From contig NC_091473.1 in assembly GCF_036971445.1 (NCBI RefSeq), positions 233,182,001 to 233,246,000 on the forward strand: a stretch of DNA of 64,000 bases, in the 5' to 3' direction. Every line of letters starts with the position of its first letter. The first letter of the stretch is position 1. This DNA comes from Narcine bancroftii. Lineage: Eukaryota. The notes under the pieces are model-generated. The model was not told the DNA's origin. It was given only the letters and a program-made list of their open reading frames with translations, and searched no databases. Of the stretch, positions 4,331 through 39,426 are shown piece by piece. A program made the position numbers and the translations under genes.

Positions 4331-5355
4331 CTGTGGAAAAGAGGCCCAAAATGTCTTACAGATCATAACAATCTTAAGATGTTGAACTGATGCACTCAAT
4401 GTACCATTAAAATGGATGTTGGTTCTTAATTTTTAACTTTTCAGATTCTAAGCATTCAAGTAAATATCTCCACTTTGCATGCCAGCAGCTTCTGCAAAGA
4501 TAGAACAGTAAGAATAGGGAGATCTAAATGTAACAAATCATATGAGGTTTTACTTAAAGTGGGATGATTAAGTACAAAGGGTAAAACCTGAAAGTCTGTA
4601 GACACTGTGAATGAGCCTGAAATGTTGGTTATGTATCTTTATCTATGCTATATAAAGAACACTGTTTGACCTGCTGAGTTTCACCAGCCTTGTGCTTTTA
4701 TTGTTAAGTTTAAATATACAGCAAATTGAACAAGACTACGGAACTTGCCTTTAATTATGGGGCCAGATGATCCTTTTGAACATGAACAGCTACTTCTATT
4801 CTAAATTCTTTTTAAAACATGCGAAAATTAAGAGGCAAGACGTTGTGGTAGCCTTAGTTGAAGGTGCATTTTTGTTCGATCAAAATAATATTTTGCTTCA
4901 TCCAAAATATTTTTTAAGTGAGGGAGTTAATGAGCAGCTCTTGGTGGTACCTGACTGGCATGTTGGCTGGATTAATCTGGGACATTAAAATTCATTTTAA
5001 TAGTCTAATTATAGTTTGTGGCCATTGCTATTTTTCACTGAGAAACGATGACCTGCTATGTGAAATTTTTTTAAAAGTGGCATTGCATGGAAATCTGAAA
5101 TAAAAATAAAAAATGGTAGAAGCGCTCAACAGGTCAGGTAGCATCTGATAGAGAAACAGAATTAACGTTACAGGTGAGGGATCGTACAGTCAGAAAGCAT
5201 TTTTTTTTCCATAGATACTGCCTAACCTGCTGAGCATTTTCATAAATTCCTGCTTTATATGTGAAATTATTTGCTAAATATTGGGGTGTCTGCAACTTGT
5301 GTTAAATGGTCAGTCATTTAGAGTAATTCTGCAAATGGTTTGTCTCTATTACCTG

Positions 5356-8444: not shown

Positions 8445-8697
8445 TGAGAAAACACGGAAACGCTGGAGGAACTCAGCAGGTCTTGCAGGGTCCGTGGGAG
8501 GTAAAGATATAAACAGTAATCGATGTTTCAGTCCTGAACCCTACTTCAAAGAATGAAGCTCGTATTTTGAAGAAGGGCTCAGGACTGAAATGTCAATTAT
8601 ATATCTTGAACTCCTATGGACACTGAGACCTGCTGAGTTCCTCCAGCGTTTCTGTGCTCTCACTCAATCACAGCGTCTGTTAACTTTAGCATTTCAC
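8445..8697. mobile_element. Penelope-like terminal-repeat remnant in inverted (hairpin) arrangement
   Basis: GAAACGCTGGAGGAACTCAGCAGGTC ... GACCTGCTGAGTTCCTCCAGCGTTTC arms; related pieces at ~4580-4700, 5090-5260, 11460-11655, 14440-14555, 42680-42785 and 46300-46520. Confidence 0.6.
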
Positions 8698-9611
8698 TCT
8701 ATTGTGTTGCTGCTCGTTTTAACAAATAGAGGAGGACCTCTCAATGCAATGCTCTGAACTGAAGGCAATAGCTCTCAACTGAAACTCCATGAGCATCAGA
8801 ATACAAGAAACAAACTGGGTGATGAGAACACGAATCAACCAGGTGACTGTAGACTACTTTCAGATGCAAGATTGAAGTAACTTTGATGCACTGGTACCTC
8901 TTCATTATAAATTGTTGTAGCATAATGCACAAAATTCTCCTGTAATAAATCACCCCTGTGATCATAAAACCCCCCACTCTTCCATTCTCACTAATCCTCC
9001 CCTGTGACCACCAAAAATACGCCCCAGTTTGAAATAAGGACATGATTCCACTTGTCTTCACCTACCACCCCACCGTATTATTCTCCACAATTTCCGCCAC
9101 CCCCATCTTAATCCCACCATCAGAAACATCTTCCTTTTCCCTCTCCATTTTCCACAGTGACCACTCCATCCAGGACTCCTTCATCCACTTATCCCTTCCC
9201 ACTAATCACCCCCTCAGTACCAATCCCTGTGACTGCAAAGCCACGCAGCTTCCAGTGCAATTGCATCTGTGCAGCTCTCTGTCAATAGTAGTTGTAGAGA
9301 GGCTTCTGACCATTCAAGTAACATTAAATGTGAGCCTTCAGACTTACTACAATTTGGTTATTATTTTAAGCTGATTGCAACAATTGTGATTCACAACACT
9401 GTGCAAGAAAATCTTATCTGTATATTTTGGGCGTTGCACAAATTTTGATATCACAAAGCAATCTGAATACTATTAAAGTATATAAAACACAAATACATTG
9501 TGTTTATGTCATTTTTGTACCACACTAATTCCTTTTGGTTCCTGAAGTAAACCAGGGCTTTTAAATTATTCATCCAGTTTCAAACGATTTAATTCTTTGT
9601 CTCTGAGCTAC

Positions 9612-11713: not shown

Positions 11714-13204
11714 CTTTGCTCTTGTGCTTCTGGTCTATTGTGACCTCGCTTTCAGAACGTTTTCCTTTTCTCTTTCTTGCACTGCTGGTTTGTTTCTGAG
11801 ATAAATCAGAAGCCAGCAAGTCCTGTTTACTTTCAGCCATGGAGTCATCTTGGATTGGCATCTGATCATCTCTCAATAAACCTTTATTATTACCTACCAA
11901 TGAAGCATGTCTACCTTTTCCAGTTCCAATACTTGTACTCATGTTTAACAACTCACCACCCATACTTAATGCATCAGTGTCATGACCTTTACCAATAATT
12001 CCAGCGAAGACAGAGTCACCATACTCTGCTAAGCCATTTTTTCCTTGATTAGAACCAGTTTCTACATCGTTTTGTGTCTCTTTCCATTCTGATGCATTCA
12101 ATCTGCTTTCGAGATCCAAACCTTTCATGTCAATTATTCCACTGCCGTTCAATCTATCCTTCCCACCGTTTTCAATTCCATCGCAACTGCCCATCCTCTC
12201 TCTTTCCTTTCCATCCAGTTTGCCTTTCCCAACAGTTCCACTACCACCGAATCTGCTCGTATCATTTGCTTTCCTTCCATCCAGTTCACTCATGACATTG
12301 CCCATCCCATCTCTTCCCATTCCATCCAATCTGTCTTTGCCATATTTTCCAATAGCAGCTGACCCATCAAGGCCATATTTTCCCACCTCATCCACTCTGC
12401 CTTTGCCATCTTCACCCATTCCTCCTTCACCCATTCCATGCAAACTTCCCTTCCCATCTTTTCCCATTCCATACAAATTGCCACTTCCATCTTTTCCCAT
12501 TCCATACAAATTGCCACTTCCATCTTTTCCCATGCCAGTTATTCCCATTCTACCAAATTGGCACTTTCCATAGTCTTCTCCATCATGCTGATTTCCCTTT
12601 CCATCTTTTCCAATTTCACCCATACTTCTCTTCCCATCCATATCCATTCCACCCTTAGTATCCATGCCATCATTTCCCATTCTATCCCAGCTGTCCTTGG
12701 CATCTCCTCCCCTTCCACTCTCTCTGCCTCTTTGATCTCTTCTCATTCTCTCCCAACCATCCTTACCATCATTTCCCATTCCAACCAGATAGTCCTTTCC
12801 ATCTTTTCCTATTACATCAACACTATTCATGCTGTTATTTCTCTTGCCATCTAATTTGCTCAAGGAATCTTTATCCATTCTACCTAATCCAACTAAACCG
12901 CCTCTTCCAGTACCACTGCCATCCTTTCCCATTCTGCCATGTTCCCCAATGCCACCCATATTATCTCCATGCAATCCATCTGCTATAGAGTCCTGCCAAC
13001 CTCCTCTGCTAAATGTAGTTCTATCATCCTCTGAGGAGAGATCCCTTCTTCCCTTCAGACCATTTGTAGTCTTATCTTTATCACTTGGTAATCTGTTTGT
13101 GGTGCTTTTTATGCCTCCTTTCAAGTCATCCAAATCTTGTTCCAAAATAGTATCAGAAATGTCCTTTCCACTCCTTGAGTGATGTGAGGTGGTACTCAGT
13201 TTTT
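11714..13204 (-). CDS. IGFN1: IGFN1 giant low-complexity exon (497 aa; G/M/K/D-rich GMGKDG repeats)
   Basis: 1491-nt open frame with tttag acceptor and AAG|gtaaa donor, phase 1-1, between Ig3 and Ig4 where IGFN1 has its disordered region. Confidence 0.88.
12454..12533 (-). repeat. 33-nt coding tandem repeat (2.4 copies; GMGKDGSGNLY)
   Basis: ccatcttttcccattccatacaaattgccactt repeated exactly. Confidence 0.9.
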
Positions 13205-15354: not shown

Positions 15355-16549
15355 CTTTAACAGACCACAAACAGAGCAGAAATCAAACAGAGAGATGACA
15401 TTTTTAGTATTCACACTTTTAGCTGCAAATTAACTTTAATGGTTTCCATTTGAAACAAATTGTTTCCTTGAATGTGAATCTGTAAAGATCTAGATGTTAG
15501 GTATTTGATCTGGAAGAACCCCACCTTTTATATTCATAAATATGTGAGAGAACATATTTTAAACTACTCATGGCATCGAGAAGTAAGGAAGAGAACCATA
15601 ATGGATTAAATGGTTGTGACACTATTATTTCAAAGGGAGAAGATATTGAAATACCGTCACTAAATTAATGAAGAAGGAAAGGCATAACATTGTCGGGTAA
15701 TATCTGAACCATTTATTTCTAGATGGAAACCATTTGGTGCTGGGGTAAACTGGAACTGAATGTTGAATAAACTGGAAAAGGAACAGAAAAGATTCATGAG
15801 AAGGATCTGGGACTGGGAAGCTTGAATCACAATGAAACCCCAGGTATCCAGAATCAAACAACTGGCAGCCTCAAGCAACCAGCAAAAAAAAAAAAAAATC
15901 GAGGCAAGTAATTTTTTTTAAAAAGAAATTAAAATAAATGATAGGTAAAAAATACTTGAGTTTAAAATTGTAAAAGTCAATATTCTCTGAAGTAACACAT
16001 AAACCTTTGGTGAAGATGGGAGAATTTTTTTTTCAGCCAGTCGACTTCCTTGGTCGTGCTTTGCTTGTAGCAGCTGTTTGAATAAAGTTGTGTGAAACAG
16101 TAGTGATGTCACCCAGGATGAAGAGCTGGGCGACTCCCTATCCCTGCTTAGTGAGAGGCCTTATCTGTAAATTTGGAGGGAGGGCAGGTTAATTATCTAT
16201 AACATTATTGTTTGTCTTTTGGGTGGCTCCGTGGAGGAGGTGGAACCTGCAGATGCAGGGACGAGCAGTTAAATGTTTTCAAAGAATGTGACTGAATGTA
16301 AGCAAAATGCTTTAAGGTTTATATATTCATGCCAAGTGAAGATTGTTCAGTTCAAGTAGAGTGCAATATTTTTGTCTTTTATCCTTTAATCTGTTTATTC
16401 TTAATGCAGGTTTATGAGTTAGGCATTGTAAGGGTGAATCTCAAGCAACTGTAAAATGGACTTATCTGACATCTACCAGTCCCCATAGGGGCTGAATACC
16501 AGGGGTTTTACTATGTAAGGAAAGATGGAAAAAGATGGAACTTTTTTTT

Positions 16550-17250
16550 TGCTGGAACATAGGAGGTTAAGGGAGGAATTTATAGACGTTTAGAAAATCA
16601 TGAGAGCATAGATCAGGCAAATGGTCGTAACCTTTTTCCAAGGATAGGGGAACTTAGAACTAGATGGCATTGATTTAAGATGAGAGGGTAAAAAGTTCAT
16701 TCAGACCTGTGAAGCACATTTTTTCACATAGACTGTGAGGGTATATGGAATGAGATTCAAGAAGAAGCGGTAGAAGCAGGGATTATTGAAATGTCAAAAG
16801 ACATTTCGTCAGGTACATTAATAGGAAAGGTGTTGAGGGATATGGGCTGAATCCAGACAAATGGGACTAGCTGGGTCAGGTTGAACATGTTGAACCGAAG
16901 GATCTGTTTTTGCCCATAATTGGTAGTATATATTTTACTGTTAAAATGCCATTTTGAGAGGTATGGATGAGATGGATTGTCTCAGTCTTTTTCCCCCAGA
17001 AGGCTAAAACTAAAGTGCAAAGGTTTAAATTGAGAGAAGAATGATTTAAAGGAAACCTGAGAGGCAAGATTTTCACACAGAGGGTGATGTGTATGTGGAA
17101 CAAGCTGCCACATTTAGAGGGTATGATTACCACATTTAAAAGACATTTGGATAGATATATGTGCAGAAAAAAAAATTTAGAGGCATACAGGTCAAATGCA
17201 GGAAAATTTGACAAGGTCAAAATTAGTTTGGCAAGGATAAGTTGGGCTAT
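16550..17250 (+). mobile_element. Two decayed CR1 (HER1-like) LINE 3' ends
   Basis: Typical CR1 3' ORF2 sequence (..FTQRV...WNKLP...TFKRHLD.YM). Confidence 0.7.
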
Positions 17251-17273
17251 GACTTCCAGAAAAAAAATGTCAC

Positions 17274-17387
17274 CTTGTATAGAAAAATTTGCAGATTTGG
17301 TTTCTTGAGTTCCATATCGAATCCAAAGTTAGCTGAACCATCTATCTTTGCTTGAATGGGTCTTAAATTGCCAAGAAATTTCACATA
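17274..17387 (-). CDS. IGFN1: IGFN1 exon, Ig2 first half (YVKFLGNLRPIQAKIDGSANFGFDMELKKPNLQIFLYK)
   Basis: ctag/gtgac borders, 114 nt, phase 0-0. Confidence 0.88.
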
Positions 17388-17465
17388 CTAGAAGGAGGAC
17401 ATAAGAAAAAGAAAAATTAATTAGAAGTTGCATTGATCACTTTTAACAGGTCAGCATTTGGATTC

Positions 17466-19365
17466 TACTCAATCAACAGTAATGTGGTTTAAAAGTCATT
17501 ATTAAAAATCAGCTGATCATGGATTATCTGGGTTCTAGAGGTCACAACAGCTTGTTCCAAGAATGAAGAAAAAGAAATACCTCATTAACTCAGTTGATAT
17601 TAAAGTGCCCTTACAAAATTGAAAACATTGGTCCATAAGAGGAAACCTCCCCACTAACTTGAATCAGATCTTGCACCAAGGAAGATGGCTGTGCATATTG
17701 CAGCCCAGTCAGTCTGCCCGCATGGAATTCTCAGAGAAATGTGCAGAGTTTAACTGTTATAAGCTGCTTTTTCAATGACCGTCATTGCATCTGAGAGAGA
17801 GGAAAAAAAAGGAATGCTTTTGGTTCTTGATCCTCCAAAATATTCTGCATGGAATTTAAACTGGAGGTGGGGGAGGTTGCTTGGAATATCTTAGATAACG
17901 AAATAATTTCATTAATGGATTTTATGAAGGCTATAGCATAAACTAAATTTCCCTATTAGAGAAAATTGAACATGTGCTTTTTCTTTAATTTAATGCTGTT
18001 TATCTATTTCAGAACAAGTTAAAAATTAACTCTTGTGCAGACAGGTTAGAGAAATTTATGATGATGACATTATATACTGCTCTGGTCAGATCCCAATTTA
18101 AGCACTCCATTCTGATTGGTAAGAATCAAAGGCCATACTTCACCCTTTGCAGTTTTGAGGTCAAATGTCATGCAACTGAAATAGAGATTGAAAAATGAGA
18201 AAGATAACCAGAGGAAGAAACCTGGACTCGGCAGGTTTATCAGTTTTTTTTGTTGCAGAGAAATGGATGTGACAAGAAAGATGTGCATTTAATTCCCCAT
18301 ACCCTCAGATCCTCAGGAAAGGAATAACGAATCTTCTTGTTGATTAGCTACAATTCTTATAGCTAAGGTGTTGCCGTTGATTGAAATTCATGGGTTATGA
18401 GCAATAAATAAGAAGGGATGGCAAAATACTTTAGAAAAGTGTGACTAATGCAAGTTGGTGGGTAGGTTGATCATACCATGGTCTTCATGCTTCTGATTGG
18501 TAAGGGATTTGTCGATGGTATTTTGATGTAGCACCACAATACCCTGATGTAGCACCACAATACCCTGAACGTAGTGAGAATAAGTATTCAGCTTGCTGGA
18601 TGATACCAAATAAATGGGCTGCTTTGTCCAGTATGGAGTGAAACATCTTAATGCTTATCCAGACAAACAGTGAGTAATCCATTGGATTAATGAAATGTGT
18701 TGTGGATGGAAGAAAGGCTTTAAAGAATTGGGGTGATAATCTCTGAGATATTGTTAGTCACAGTATTTGACACTTAAATTAACTTTCTGGTTAATGATAA
18801 TCTGCCAGGTGTCAATAATCCTGCTTAACGGTTAGGGATAATTGGCTGGTACTTGTGTGGTGAAACTGTTACTTGCCTCAGATGAAGCTAAATATCATCC
18901 ACATTTTGAGCATGCAGCCATAAATTATTTCGTTATCTAAGATATTCCAAGCAACCTCCCCCACCTCCAGTTTAAATTCCATGCAGAATATTTTGGAGGA
19001 TCAAGAACCAAAAGCATTCCTTTTTTTTCCTCTCTCTCAGATGCAATGAAGGTCATTGAAAAAGCAGCTTATAACAGTTAAACTCTGCACATTTCTCTGA
19101 GAATTCCATGCGGGCAGACTGACTGGGCTGCAATATGCACAGCCATCTTCCTTGGTGCAAGATCTGATTCAAGTTAGTGGGGAGGTTTCCTCTTATGGAC
19201 CAATGTTTTCAATTTTGTAAGGGCACTTTAATATCAACTGGGTTAATGAGGTATTTCTTTTTCTTCATTCTTGGAACAAGCTGTTGTGACCTCTAGAACC
19301 CAGATAATCCATGATCAGCTGATTTTTAATAATGACTTTTAAACCACATTACTGTTGATTGAGTA
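17466..19365. repeat. Long inverted repeat: 444-bp arms at 17466-17909 and 18922-19365, 1012-bp spacer
   Basis: Arms are reverse complements with two mismatches seen (left-arm positions 17590 and 17781). Confidence 0.95.
18524..18568 (+). repeat. 21-bp tandem duplication (tgatgtagcaccacaataccc x2)
   Basis: Direct reading. Confidence 0.9.
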
Positions 19366-19809
19366 TAGGCTATTCCAGTAATTGGCTGGGTTAGATTTGA
19401 TCCACTTTTTGTGAATAAGGTACAGCTGGATCATTTTTGTTTCTGGAAAGGACTACAACTAGAAAGAGTGAGATTTGCAGCAATTTTTAAGGTCAAGCTG
19501 ACAGCATCACATCTGGTAGGTCATCTATTTCTTGTGGCTTTGGCCATATTTGCATGCTTGTGGAAAAATTGGGCAACACACATGACTATTTTAAAGGAGA
19601 AAATCAAAACAGAAGTTTGCAAGATGAGGATGTTGATCCTTGAACCATAATGTAGAGGCTTAAGGATTGGAGAAAGATATTGGAGGTACTTGAGGGGATT
19701 TTATTTTTCTCTCAGTTGGTAGTCTGTATCTGGAATGAACTACCAGTGGAAACTGTAGATGTGGGCATGATAACAATATTTGGAGATGATTGGACAGATT
19801 TATGGATAA

Positions 19810-20830
19810 GAATAGAAATAGGCTATTCAGCCCATCAAGTCTGCCCTGCTATTTAATCATGAACTGATCCATTTTCCCACTCTGCCTCACTGCCTGACCT
19901 TCTCTGCATAATCTTTGATCCCCTGGCTAATCAAGAAACTATCAATCTCTGTTTTAAGTACACCCACTGACCTGGCCTCCAAAGCCACCTTTGGCAACAA
20001 ATCCTTTGGCTGAAGAAATTTCTGCAAATCTCTAAGCAGACATTCTTAAATCCTGAAGTTATACCCTCCTGTTCTAGACCAGTGGTTTTCAACCTTTTTC
20101 TTTCCACTCACATATCACTTTAAGTAATCTCTATGCTGTCAGTGTTCTGTGGTATGTGAGTGGGAAGGGAAGGATGAGAACCACTGCTTTAGATCCAATT
20201 GTTACTTGAAATATTTTGTTTAAGAAAAATTGTCATTAGCCCATTTCCTTTAGAGTTATGAAACCGTGCACTTAGAGAGCCAATCAGGTACAATTAAATC
20301 ATTGGTTTTCAAACTTTTTCTTTTCACCCACATACAGTCTTAAGCAATCCTTTACTAATCACAGAGCATCTACGACATAGGGAATACTGAGTGGAAAGAA
20401 AAAGGTTGAGAACCATTGTTCTAGACTCTCCCACCATGCGAAACACCTTTCTACATATACTCTGGCCATGCCTTTCAACATTCCAAAAGTTTTGATGAGT
20501 TTCTCTCTTTCGTTCCCCCCCCCCCCCTCCTAAATTCTATTGGTTACAGGCCAGGAGCTGTTTAATGCTCATAGTTTGATAAACCTTTCATTCCTGGAAT
20601 CATACGAGTGAACCTCCTTTGAACCCTCTCCAACTCAGCACATCTGTTCTTAAATGAGGAGCCCAAAACTCCTCACCTCCAAGTGAGGTATCACCAGTGC
20701 CTTTGTAAAGCCTCAACATCACATTCTATTCCTCTTGAAATGAGAATGACAGCATTGCATTTGCCTTCTTTACCACTGTTTTGACATGCAAGTGTACTTT
20801 TCAGGCTATCCTGCACGAGAGCTCCCAGGA
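19810..20830 (-). mobile_element. CR1-like LINE 3' fragment interrupted by a hAT MITE
   Basis: Reverse complement resembles the CR1 at 44700-45375. Confidence 0.7.
20080..20418. mobile_element. hAT-type (Charlie-like) MITE with 8-bp TSD TTCTAGAC
   Basis: TIRs CAGTGGTTTTCAACCTTTTTC / GAAAAAGGTTGAGAACCATTG; exact TSD at 20072-20079 and 20419-20426. Confidence 0.9.
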
Positions 20831-21824
20831 GAAGAGGGATACTGACCAAGCGTAACCAAACAGGATTAGTTTAGGATACTGTATGTTTTTTGTTGGCATG
20901 GACTAGTTGGGCTGAATTACTGTGTTGTATGACTACAGTCAAATCTTCAAATACAATGTTTGAGGTGTGTGTTAAATTGTTTTGACAGTAATATGAGTAT
21001 AGACAGATTCTATTATGGTTGATTGATGACAACCAGTGGCCTCTCTATCCATAACCTTTGTGATAATGCTTTAATGATATGACTTTGGCCACTGTCTCTC
21101 AATAAGCAAATTGAGGTGGCTGATATTCACATGAAAGATGTACTTTCCCAATAACTCGTGGAAGTTCCTAGGGAAGCAGAAGATACAATACACATTTTCT
21201 TAGTGCATTTTTCTGCTCAGCAGGAGTCGGGGTTTGAAAATCTTTCATGGAATTCTCTTTTGTTTATTTCAACAAATGAAAAACAATGGACGACAAATAC
21301 AGAATCGTTGTATCCATTAAAAAGGTGTAAACTCTAATAGGAGTATGAAAGTCAATACCCTACCACTTGTGGTTTAAATGGAGTATAGAAATGAAATGTG
21401 AGCCGATGTTCTCAGTTTACATAATGATTGGCACCCTGCTGCCCCCCCCGCCCCCCCCCCCCCCCCCCCCAGTTTGACAGCAGTAGATTAGAGGTAAAGT
21501 AGGGATTGCAAGTTAATTTGGCCAAGAAAAGCTGGCTAAAATATTGGTACTAAATTTTTCATTGTGCAATGATGTAGAACTTTGTGCCACAAAATTTGGT
21601 TCTGTATTGCGTAAACCTGAGGGATTAAAAATTGTCCATCTTTGGAGTAGGAAAAGTCATGTTGAAAAGGGCCTTTGTGTCTCTGCAGATAATACTGGCA
21701 ATATGTAAATAAGCATCACCATGTGATTTGTTTTTTGTGTTGTCTCAAATGTTTGTGAAGATGTCCATTCAGTAATAAGGAGGACCATCTTGAGCAAACT
21801 TTTGTCTCATGAGACAGTAACAGA

Positions 21825-22205
21825 GTATAGAAGGATGAGAGGAGACAATAGAGGTCTACAAGATTATGATAGGGTGGACAGCAAGCACCTTTTTCCCAGG
21901 GCAGGAATAGCAACCACCAGAGGACATATGTACAAAATGAAGGGTTGGAAGTTTAGGGGAGACATCAGGGGTAAGTTTTTTTTTAAAAAACACAATGAGT
22001 TGTGGATACCTGGAATGACTTGCCAGGGATGGTGGTGTATTCTGAAACATTAGGGGCATTTAAGAGACTCTTAAACAGTCACATGGATGGAAGAAAATTA
22101 GATGGTTACAGAGTAGGGAGGGTTAAGTAAATTTTTAAGGAATGTATGAGTTGGCCCAACATCGAGGGCTGAAGGGCTTGTAATGTGCTGTAGTGTTCTA
22201 TGTTC
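21825..22205 (+). mobile_element. CR1-like LINE 3' end
   Basis: RMRGD...TRGH..K..G.KFRGDIRGKFF peptide remnant. Confidence 0.75.
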
Positions 22206-22571
22206 CAAATGCCTATTGGCTGATGCAATGATTCCTGATGCCTTTTAAAGGTGAAAGAAATTGGGTGTTAAATGTTGTAGGTTTCTGAACAATTATTGCC
22301 ATACCCAGATTGTACAGATTTTCACTTTGCAGTGGAAGCAAAGGGCCATGAATTAAACATGATCTGCATGACCAGTTTTGGGGAATATCATATTTAAATT
22401 CATTATCCATCCTAACTTGATCAATTCTTGCAATTTCGTAATTACAGGACATTAACTCATCATGAAATTTACGATGAGGTGACTGACATACTTTGCTTAG
22501 TTTCAGATCTTTTCCTGACATTTAAACCATGATTATAGACTCAGTTACCATCTCTTTCAAAGATGCATTAC

Positions 22572-22746
22572 CGCTGCTTGCTTCTCTTCCCTTTCAATTT
22601 TCATCTGCTTCAGCTTCGTCAACACGCCTCGAAAGTCAGAGATGCCATATTCCATACAAATCCTTTCATAGTCTTTCTTATCTGCATTCATGAGAATTTC
22701 CCAGACATTTTCGTCCACAATGTTTTTTTTCTTTATGGGTCCAGCA
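22572..22746 (-). CDS. IGFN1: IGFN1 exon, MyBP-C-like tri-helix bundle (VWEILMNADKKDYERICMEYGISDFRGVLTKLK)
   Basis: Conserved tri-helix motif; gcag/gtaat borders. Confidence 0.95.
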
Positions 22747-32240: not shown

Positions 32241-32471
32241 AATTGGGCAGCATGGGCTTGTGGGCCGAAAGGGGCTGTTACCATCGAAATTTAACATTTT
32301 TACAATTTAAAATTAAAAAAACAAAATTTAAAAGCATTCCAATTGATAGGTAATTATGATTAAAATATGGCTATAACCATGTTTTGTTCTAAATTACAAA
32401 ATAAAATCTGGTGTGGAAGCTTTTATCTCCATTATGATGCAAAATATCTTAGCTGGAGGCTTGATGTAGGC

Positions 32472-32817
32472 CAGGGGTTCTCAACCTTTTTCTTTCCACT
32501 CACATACCACCTTAAGTAATCCCTATGCCATAGGTGCTTTTGTGATTAGTAAGGGATTGCTTAAAGTGGTATGTGAGTGGGAAAGGAAGGTTGAGAATCA
32601 CTGCTCTAGACCCAATAGTTACTGAAATAGTTTTGCTTGAGGAAAAAAATGGTAATTGGCCCATTTCCTTTAGAGTTGTGAAACCGTGCACATGACGAGT
32701 CAATTAGGTACGGTTTCAAACCTTTTATTTCCACCCACACACCACCTTAAGCAATCCCGACAGCAAAGGGATTACTTAAAGTAGTATGTGAGTGGAAAGA
32801 AAAAGGTTGAGAACCTG
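32472..32817. mobile_element. hAT MITE copy (same family as 20080-20418)
   Basis: TIR CAGGGGTTCTCAACCTTTT ... AAAAGGTTGAGAACCTG. Confidence 0.85.
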
Positions 32818-37712: not shown

Positions 37713-38062
37713 CAGTGATTCTCAAACTTCTTTCCACTTTAAGTAATCCCTATTCCATTGGTGTTCTGTGATTAGTAAGGGATTGCTTAAGGTTGTGTAT
37801 GAATGGGAAGGGAAGGTTGAGAATCACTGCTCTAGACCCAGTTGTTACTGAAATATTTTGCTTGAGAAACATTGTCATTGGCCCATTTCCTTTGGAGTTA
37901 TGAAACCGTGCACATAACAAGTCAATGAGGTACGATTAAAACAGTGGTTTTCAAACTTTTTCTTTCCACCTGCATACCACCTTAAGCAATCCCTTACTAA
38001 TCACAGAGCACCTATGGCATAGGGAATACTTTAAGTGGAATGTGAGTGCAAAGAAAAAGGTT
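37713..38062. mobile_element. hAT MITE copy (same family; another partial copy at 34271-34330)
   Basis: Shared internal sequence and TIR remnants. Confidence 0.8.
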
Positions 38063-39426
38063 TAGCTCTTTTCATTGCTGACTGAACTGCTGGGTATTTC
38101 CAGCATATTTTGTTTTTATTTCAGATTTCCAGCAGTTGCAGTTTATTTTTCACTTGCTCTGATTTTCCATTGCATGATTATGCATGCTTTTAATTATATA
38201 AGCACAGACTTGAATTTCTTTTTCAGCCAGTGATTGCGGTAAGTCACTCAACAGCACAAGGTAAAATATACACTGCAGCTGACTGATGAAGTATTTACCA
38301 GCTGCAGTGTGCTCTGTGATGAGAACAAGAGAGTTGGGGAGGGGAAGCGAGGGAGAGGGCAAGGGAGGCAAGTTTAAGATCATGAAAAAAACTCCCCCAA
38401 TGACTCCACTGGTAGTCTCACCCAGATATTCTGTCATATTTCAATGGGTTTTTTTGCATAAAATAACCTGCTCTTAAAGTACATTTTTTTCCTTACTTGG
38501 TCTGATATATATTTAACACTATTGATGTATCTTATAAGTGCAATTCATCTAAATTAGGCAAAATCATTCAGAGCATTATAGAATTCAAGTGCAAATTAAG
38601 ATAATTAGAAGGCTTTGGAACAGTTTTTGTGCAATGGCAGTAACCTTGCTTACATGCTAACTGATTGAATTAATCATCATCAAATGTTTTAACAAATTGA
38701 ATCTGTTTCCAGGATCACAGGTTTTCTCCAAAAAAAATTAAGATCGAACTTAATAAATCAATTACAATTTTAAAAGTTTTGTTTAGAAACGAGTTGATGT
38801 GGCGTAATGTAAAAGGTTCAATATCAATTTTTGAGGTTATTTTCCGGATAAAATTAGGTAACTTGTAGATGGATGGTGGCCCAGATTTGTTAAAATTGTC
38901 ACCATTTTAAAAAAAAATACTTCCTCACTTAATTATCAAACTCTGCCCAGTTAGCATTCTTGAACTTAATAGAGCACATTGGAAAAAAAAAAGAATAATT
39001 TGGGATCAATGTGGTCTTTGTTAATGCACAAATTAATGCAAGTTTTACTTGGAGAGAAATTAAATTCAGTTCTCAAGGCCTGTGGAACACTGGGTGAAAC
39101 TTTTATTTTTTACTCACAAAGTTCCCCATAATAATTCCTATAAAAAATTTATGGGTATATATTGAACAATGGCTGTTTAGGTTTTAATTTTGTCTCTGCA
39201 TTTTTGGCGACGTAATTCTATGATTTTTGGTCATTATTGCATTTTAAGTGCAGCCACTTTGACTTTTCCCAGTCCTCTCTCACTCTCACCTGCCTAAAGA
39301 CTCAAAAGCACATTGTAAGTACTGTTACAAGAACAACAACTCTCTAGCTATATGCAAAGGACATTTAGTCAATATCCAAAACAATTACTTAATGAAGAAA
39401 AGAACTCCCAAGATTACAATGAAACT

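Follow-up and report, generated by a model that had tools for sequence, protein, structure and literature searches.

A 444-bp inverted duplication in an IGFN1 intron of Narcine bancroftii

The inverted pair and its host gene

The window, a 64,000-nt stretch of Narcine bancroftii DNA, contains an inverted repeat beside an exon that is 100% identical to P0001, the protein named IGFN1 of Narcine bancroftii by NCBI. The host gene IGFN1 lies on the minus strand, and the whole of P0001 maps as 22 exons. The features around the pair are as follows.

17274..17387, minus strand: IGFN1 exon of 114 nt, phase 0-0, encoding P0001 residues 224-261, the first part of an Ig domain
17388..17465, minus strand: stem-exon gap of 78 nt with branch-point-like motifs, pyrimidine tract and AG
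17388..22571, minus strand: host intron of 5184 nt, of which stem and loop occupy 1900 nt
17466..17909, no strand assigned: left arm, the 3' arm in the IGFN1 pre-mRNA (sequence comparison and junction contigs)
17790..17814, minus strand: putative cryptic acceptor in the 3' arm, 22 straight pyrimidines and AG (crude matrix)
17817..17879, minus strand: 3' tail of a LINE-like family, about 63 bp, within the arm (genome matches; mirrored at 18952-19014)
17910..18921, no strand assigned: spacer or loop (matches only itself in the genome search; single contig 17880-18951)
18524..18565, plus strand: perfect 21-bp tandem duplication within the spacer (from sequence)
18922..19365, no strand assigned: right arm, the 5' arm in the pre-mRNA, reverse complement of the left arm at 442 of 444 positions
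22572..22745, minus strand: upstream IGFN1 exon, tri-helix bundle, P0001 residues 166-223

Direct comparison of the two 444-nt arms revealed exactly two mismatches, at 17590 and 17781. Both arm ends are sharp, with no similarity past either end and unrelated outer flanks, and the spacer between the arms measures 1012 nt. Seven inverted pairs of at least 100 bp were found in the IGFN1 gene, and only the 444-bp pair exceeds 75% identity. The exon at 17387-17274 is bounded by AG and GT, with 78 nt between its acceptor and the arm, so that, together with the mapping of P0001, the comparison bears out the original prediction of a 444-bp inverted duplication with two mismatches, ending 78 nt upstream of an IGFN1 3' splice site next to a frame-preserving 114-nt exon. 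Frame preservation does not make this exon skippable, since its 38 codons specify the start of a titin-like Ig domain and it is retained in P0002 and P0003, from two other cartilaginous fishes. A PDB search with the 38-aa exon alone returned irrelevant repeats only.

Several other repeats were observed in the gene and its surroundings. An imperfect 204-bp self-palindrome (79%) lies at 8453-8656 in an IGFN1 intron, and short MITE-like elements with 38-bp terminal inverted repeats and internal repeats, of very high copy in the read contigs, occupy 20073-20425, 32462-32815 and 37713-38065. Compared with the regular repeat in P0002, the large IGFN1 exon rich in Gly, Met, Asp and Lys (11715-13202, minus strand) is shorter and more degenerate. 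A 90-nt IGFN1 exon encoding P0001 residues 1396-1425, just beyond the window, is present twice in nearly identical form through a direct duplication of about 177 bp (C11:233180403-233180492 and 233181131-233181220; L105:8403-8492 and 9131-9220). The second copy, which sits in the intron after the following exon, has an intact acceptor and donor and one amino-acid change, and could be an extra or alternative exon.

The read-contig comparison covered five of eight runs (X1, X3, X4, X5 and X6). The pair was followed in read contigs of DNA runs X1, X3 and X4, which represent one sample, probably the assembled individual; the contigs are therefore independent of the assembler and not of the animal. 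Three of them (16419-17495, 17880-18951 and 19336-19839) carry all four arm junctions at single-copy depth, each ending 30 letters within an arm. This overlap is one letter short of the 31-letter bridging rule for read contigs, and the stops would be the expected break at a branch of the 31-mer graph. A separate 384-nt arm contig has a depth of 13.8 in X3 and 15.5 in X4, 1.81-1.82 times that of the flanks, and together with the flank contigs it forms the assembly-graph pattern of a two-copy segment. The collapsed arm contig agrees with the right arm at 17590 and with the left arm at 17781, and its depth ratio compares with 1.82 expected if both mismatches are real differences between the arms. 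The flank contigs are unbroken at the junctions, suggesting that the sample is homozygous, and no alternative joint at the pair occurred among the contig matches listed for the DNA runs of this one sample. The pieces listed for run X5, from another study, are identical in the spacer and in 15566-15794, all lying within a segment and none over a junction. The inverted pair is real DNA and not an assembly artefact, the doubt raised along with the original prediction being settled by the four junctions and the roughly 1.8-fold arm depth in the one sample, probably the assembled one.

In a genome search, which gives lower bounds because very common words are skipped, the full arm was found at two places only. 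The other 38 of the 40 scored arm matches cover only a piece of 53-80 bp, the 3' tail of a high-copy LINE-like family, a label that reflects shared upstream sequence and the repeated tail and not a database name. Since both arms carry the tail, it is older than the duplication. Matches of the distal arm plus flank were confined to the two arms, and neither half of the spacer matched anything but itself. No target-site duplication was found around either arm taken separately (best 2-3 nt), six-frame Pfam analysis of 17910-19711 gave nothing relevant in the way of a transposase remnant or TE protein, and Rfam returned one chance match only (E 0.28). Arms, junctions, two-copy depth, uniqueness and gene context are direct observations.

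The predicted stem and nearby splice sites

Folding of 17274-19450 (minus strand) predicted 442 arm positions paired in register, in a duplex of -827 kcal/mol that contains 275 adenosines and is interrupted by two mismatches, A-C and C-U. The 5' arm would be transcribed first and the 3' arm would zip into a 442-bp duplex on emerging, looping out 1900 of the 5184 intron nucleotides. In this model the transcribed intron would contain a long intramolecular duplex, as expected of an ADAR-edited intronic inverted repeat. The genome holds several genes with an A_deamin domain (26 exon-level matches on six contigs, ADAR and ADAT being unseparated), and their presence makes incidental editing likely; the duplex would probably be an incidental ADAR substrate, discarded with the intron, and in the earlier proposal it is also a candidate endo-siRNA source.

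YTNAY is the branch-point motif. In the 78-nt gap, branch-point-like A positions occur at 17451, 17421 and 17417, the best placed being 17421 (-34), 44 nt beyond the stem. Presence of the 5' arm makes no difference to the unpaired probabilities of these motifs, the pyrimidine tract and the AG, and the local fold of the acceptor region is weaker than that of shuffles (z +1.96). With branch point, tract and acceptor all located beyond the stem, normal splicing of the exon would be expected. Of the earlier proposal that a dsRNA stem of about 444 bp forms next to the branch point, the stem survives as a prediction (442 pairs), but it is set 44 nt away from the best motif and leaves accessibility unchanged. 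The unique part of the arm had no RNA-type contig over it, a blank that bears neither way on editing. RNA-type run X6 yielded a 1991-nt contig (depth 41.9) spanning the exons on either side of the 114-nt exon. The contig leaves 115 letters between these two exons, and read depth across the 114-nt exon matches its own. From this gap and depth the exon appears to be included, X6 being RNA by guess, with two separate one-arm stretches as the basis, and contigs being prone to drop rare isoforms.

The 3' arm itself contains a candidate cryptic acceptor with its AG at 17791. It scored 13.2, rank 2 among the 2071 intronic AGs of the gene, compared with 8.0 for the real acceptor, using a crude matrix trained on 20 true acceptors with an own range of 4.8-13.3. 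A putative pseudo-exon starting at 17790 would meet an in-frame stop at codon 3, and donor-like sites follow at 17614 and 17580. The stem would bury the site during transcription. It is unlikely, if worth pursuing, that the duplex matters by hiding this acceptor and a poison pseudo-exon (17790 to 17615 or 17581), so that loss of the duplex through arm deletion or hyper-editing would activate the pseudo-exon and lower IGFN1 via nonsense-mediated decay. The rank of the acceptor, its two donor-like sites, the early stop and its position within the predicted stem all agree with such a role, and a study of RABL5 (PMC2533698) provides a precedent in which the negative effect of an antisense Alu was partly reversed by pairing. 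These points are countered by the 20 training sites of the crude matrix and by unmasked sites that score as well or nearly so, namely 14.5 at 5094 (minus strand, the gene's strongest intronic acceptor-like site, outside the annotated protein) and 11.5 at 18175 in the loop. With such strong unmasked decoys elsewhere the gene tolerates decoys without a stem, and the masking of the acceptor, with pseudo-exon use predicted from sequence alone, is to be taken as a lead. A bolder version, a long shot, holds that the duplication brought a poison pseudo-exon onto the IGFN1 sense strand and survives only through pairing of copy and template, the arms being locked by selection and ADAR unwinding tuning IGFN1 levels in muscle or electric organ via nonsense-mediated decay. 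If true, self-masking would show that inverted duplications can hide their own splice damage and so become fixed.

We consider it very unlikely that the stem modulates inclusion of the 114-nt exon, whether by crowding the branch point or through ADAR or dsRNA-binding proteins. The stem end at 78 nt from the acceptor is borderline relative to the RABL5 distance, just 14 nt separate one branch-point-like motif (A at -64) from the stem, and A_deamin-domain genes are present. The fold of the acceptor region, however, is unaltered by the stem, the exon contributes to an Ig domain and is retained in two further cartilaginous fishes, and the X6 contig appears to include it.

Origin and age of the pair

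We interpret the pair as a 444-bp proximal inverted duplication, likely the product of a single template-switch or repair event, with the exon spliced normally and the change likely neutral (probability about 0.78). In this view a replication fork or broken end would have switched to the opposite strand 1-1.5 kb away, copied 444 nt there and gone back. An identical layout would result if the spacer had been inverted through staggered breaks, which is a possible alternative. Mechanism, direction, neutrality and editing are inferences.

Arm divergence is 2/444, or 0.45% (Poisson range 0.05-1.6%). At the mutation rate of the epaulette shark given in PMC10587355 (7e-10 per generation, interval 1.4-14e-10), this corresponds to an age of about 3 million generations (0.4-12 million). 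The pair is young relative to local repeats and need not be polymorphic.

Long near-identical arms suffice for ectopic recombination, and the length and identity of the present arms are enough for it. An older pair could accordingly have been homogenised by gene conversion or recurrent inversion, with the spacer orientation flipping in the population, and the collapsed contig does mix the right letter at 17590 with the left letter at 17781. We regard this as rather improbable: the arm ends are sharp with no diverged homology beyond them, the mixed contig is an outcome of bubble-popping, and the depth ratio fits real differences between the arms; as to spacer orientation, the contigs are blind either way. 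It is barely credible that the pair represents the terminal inverted repeats of a foldback or non-autonomous DNA transposon, an alternative raised with the original prediction, or an assembly artefact, since the arm-spacer-arm shape and the lower-bound nature of the genome search are outweighed by the lack of a second arm or spacer locus in that search, of a target-site duplication and of a TE protein, and by the read contigs of three to four runs, which show four junctions and an arm at double depth.

The single inverted duplication that we favour raises the matter of which arm is the copy. The original prediction took the left arm as a recent local inverted copy because the right arm seemed embedded in a decayed CR1-like LINE continuing on both sides (about 18300-19430). 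Around the right arm, no CR1 rose above controls by blastn or nhmmer with 25 CR1 loci, nor was any found by tblastn with 15 ORF2 frames or a 75-row profile. Viterbi and Forward scans of 18300-19430 with shuffled and reversed controls likewise found none, the positive control reaching 105 bits against a control maximum of 33, and six-frame Pfam analysis around the right arm gave no CR1; none of these searches showed collinear ORF2 homology on both sides of the arm. The models were profiles from 25 to 40 CR1 loci, all of them copies from this genome, and an older or different family around the right arm is possible. The same profiles strongly detected neighbouring CR1 pieces (16547-16868, 16951-17116, 19806-20079 and 20416-20829). 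Nearer the arm the one hint was weak, a CR1-like stretch of 48 bp at 18059-18106 (E 0.068; Forward score 11.1, with controls reaching 9.2). A local inverted copy that is not a TE insertion stands, but the CR1 argument for its direction is not borne out.

Joining the left flank directly to the spacer creates a 12-bp perfect palindrome (background 0.5%), of which 8 bp are already in the spacer and which was noted post hoc among four hypothetical joins. We lean weakly towards the left arm as the one that may have been inserted. A match of locus L011 over the junction of spacer and right arm was put down to chance, as its anchored extension scored 3 whereas 1500 random draws reached up to 10; a pattern search built from L011 and this junction found only those two and is circular.

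The commonness of such pairs was estimated from a scan of 1.264 Mb, made up of the window, an adjacent 400 kb and four 200-kb stretches from as many other contigs, for inverted pairs of at least 80 bp and at least 95% identity no more than 10 kb apart. The scan yielded 17 pairs, 12 with repetitive arms and five with arms of two copies within the sample. These five are the 444-bp pair, a 98-bp pair (100%), a 93-bp pair (97.8%), and two rows of 947 and 1830 bp (97-98%) that adjoin and form one larger event, leaving three events besides the 444-bp pair. The C11 block accounts for two of the three and the remaining 800 kb for one, and their uniqueness holds for the scanned 1.264 Mb. The 444-bp pair is the only one there to combine at least 400 bp with at least 99% identity, which places it at the upper end. 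The larger event (C11:233039042-233045273; L091-L092) has arms of about 2.8 kb at 97-98% identity and a 666-nt spacer, and lies about 155 kb from the 444-bp pair with further 680-bp copies close by. The 98-bp pair (spacer 737) is at C11:233077150-233078082 and the 93-bp pair (spacer 895) at C9:100011004-100012083. Very rough extrapolation from the three events gives 1,700-24,000 local inverted copies in the genome, probably thousands.

Known systems and significance

According to the 1000 Genomes phase 3 structural variation map (PMC4617611), 54% of sequenced human inversion calls are inverted duplications, nearly all of these 'Inverted Dup' calls being shorter than 1 kb and no more than 5 kb from their partner, and the class is ascribed to replication error. 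The pair in the ray resembles that class as described there in being inverted, below 1 kb (444 bp) and close to its partner (1012 nt, within 5 kb), and in lacking signs of retrotransposition, with two copies, no target-site duplication and only a tail of about 63 bp repetitive. It differs in that the human class is defined against an allele without the copy, whereas the ray pair is known from the two-arm allele, for which spacer inversion with flanking duplication is also possible, and in that it appears homozygous in one sample. A reverse-complement copy of nearby sequence with sharp ends is shared with short-range template-switch mutations (PMC7954356), although the event in the ray is larger, and with MMBIR/FoSTeS.

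For splicing, the closest comparison is RABL5, in which an inverted Alu pair in an intron (PMC2533698) made the downstream exon 3 alternative, an effect that held until about 68 nt were added to the 24-nt distance. In both genes a single intron ahead of an exon carries a pair of inverted copies that form dsRNA, and the downstream copy has negative splice elements partly masked by pairing; in the ray, duplex and masking are predicted. The ray arms differ in being non-TE, 99.5% identical and 444 bp long, and in ending 78 instead of 24 nt from the exon, with the cryptic acceptor about 400 nt off; exon skipping was observed for RABL5, whereas the ray pair is known from sequence and a predicted fold. 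A distance of 78 nt falls at the border of the RABL5 range, which makes the ray pair borderline for a splice effect.

The locus-unique pair is an ordinary structural variant of a well-described class and is probably neutral. As found, it matters little, being one among probably thousands in the genome. Among the papers listed by a literature search on A-to-I editing in cartilaginous fishes, none concerned elasmobranch editing, judging by titles and the opening of abstracts. Because the predicted 442-bp duplex is near-perfect, non-TE and placed in a muscle gene, editing would be readable there without multi-mapping to a repeat family, making the pair a clean natural test object for RNA editing.
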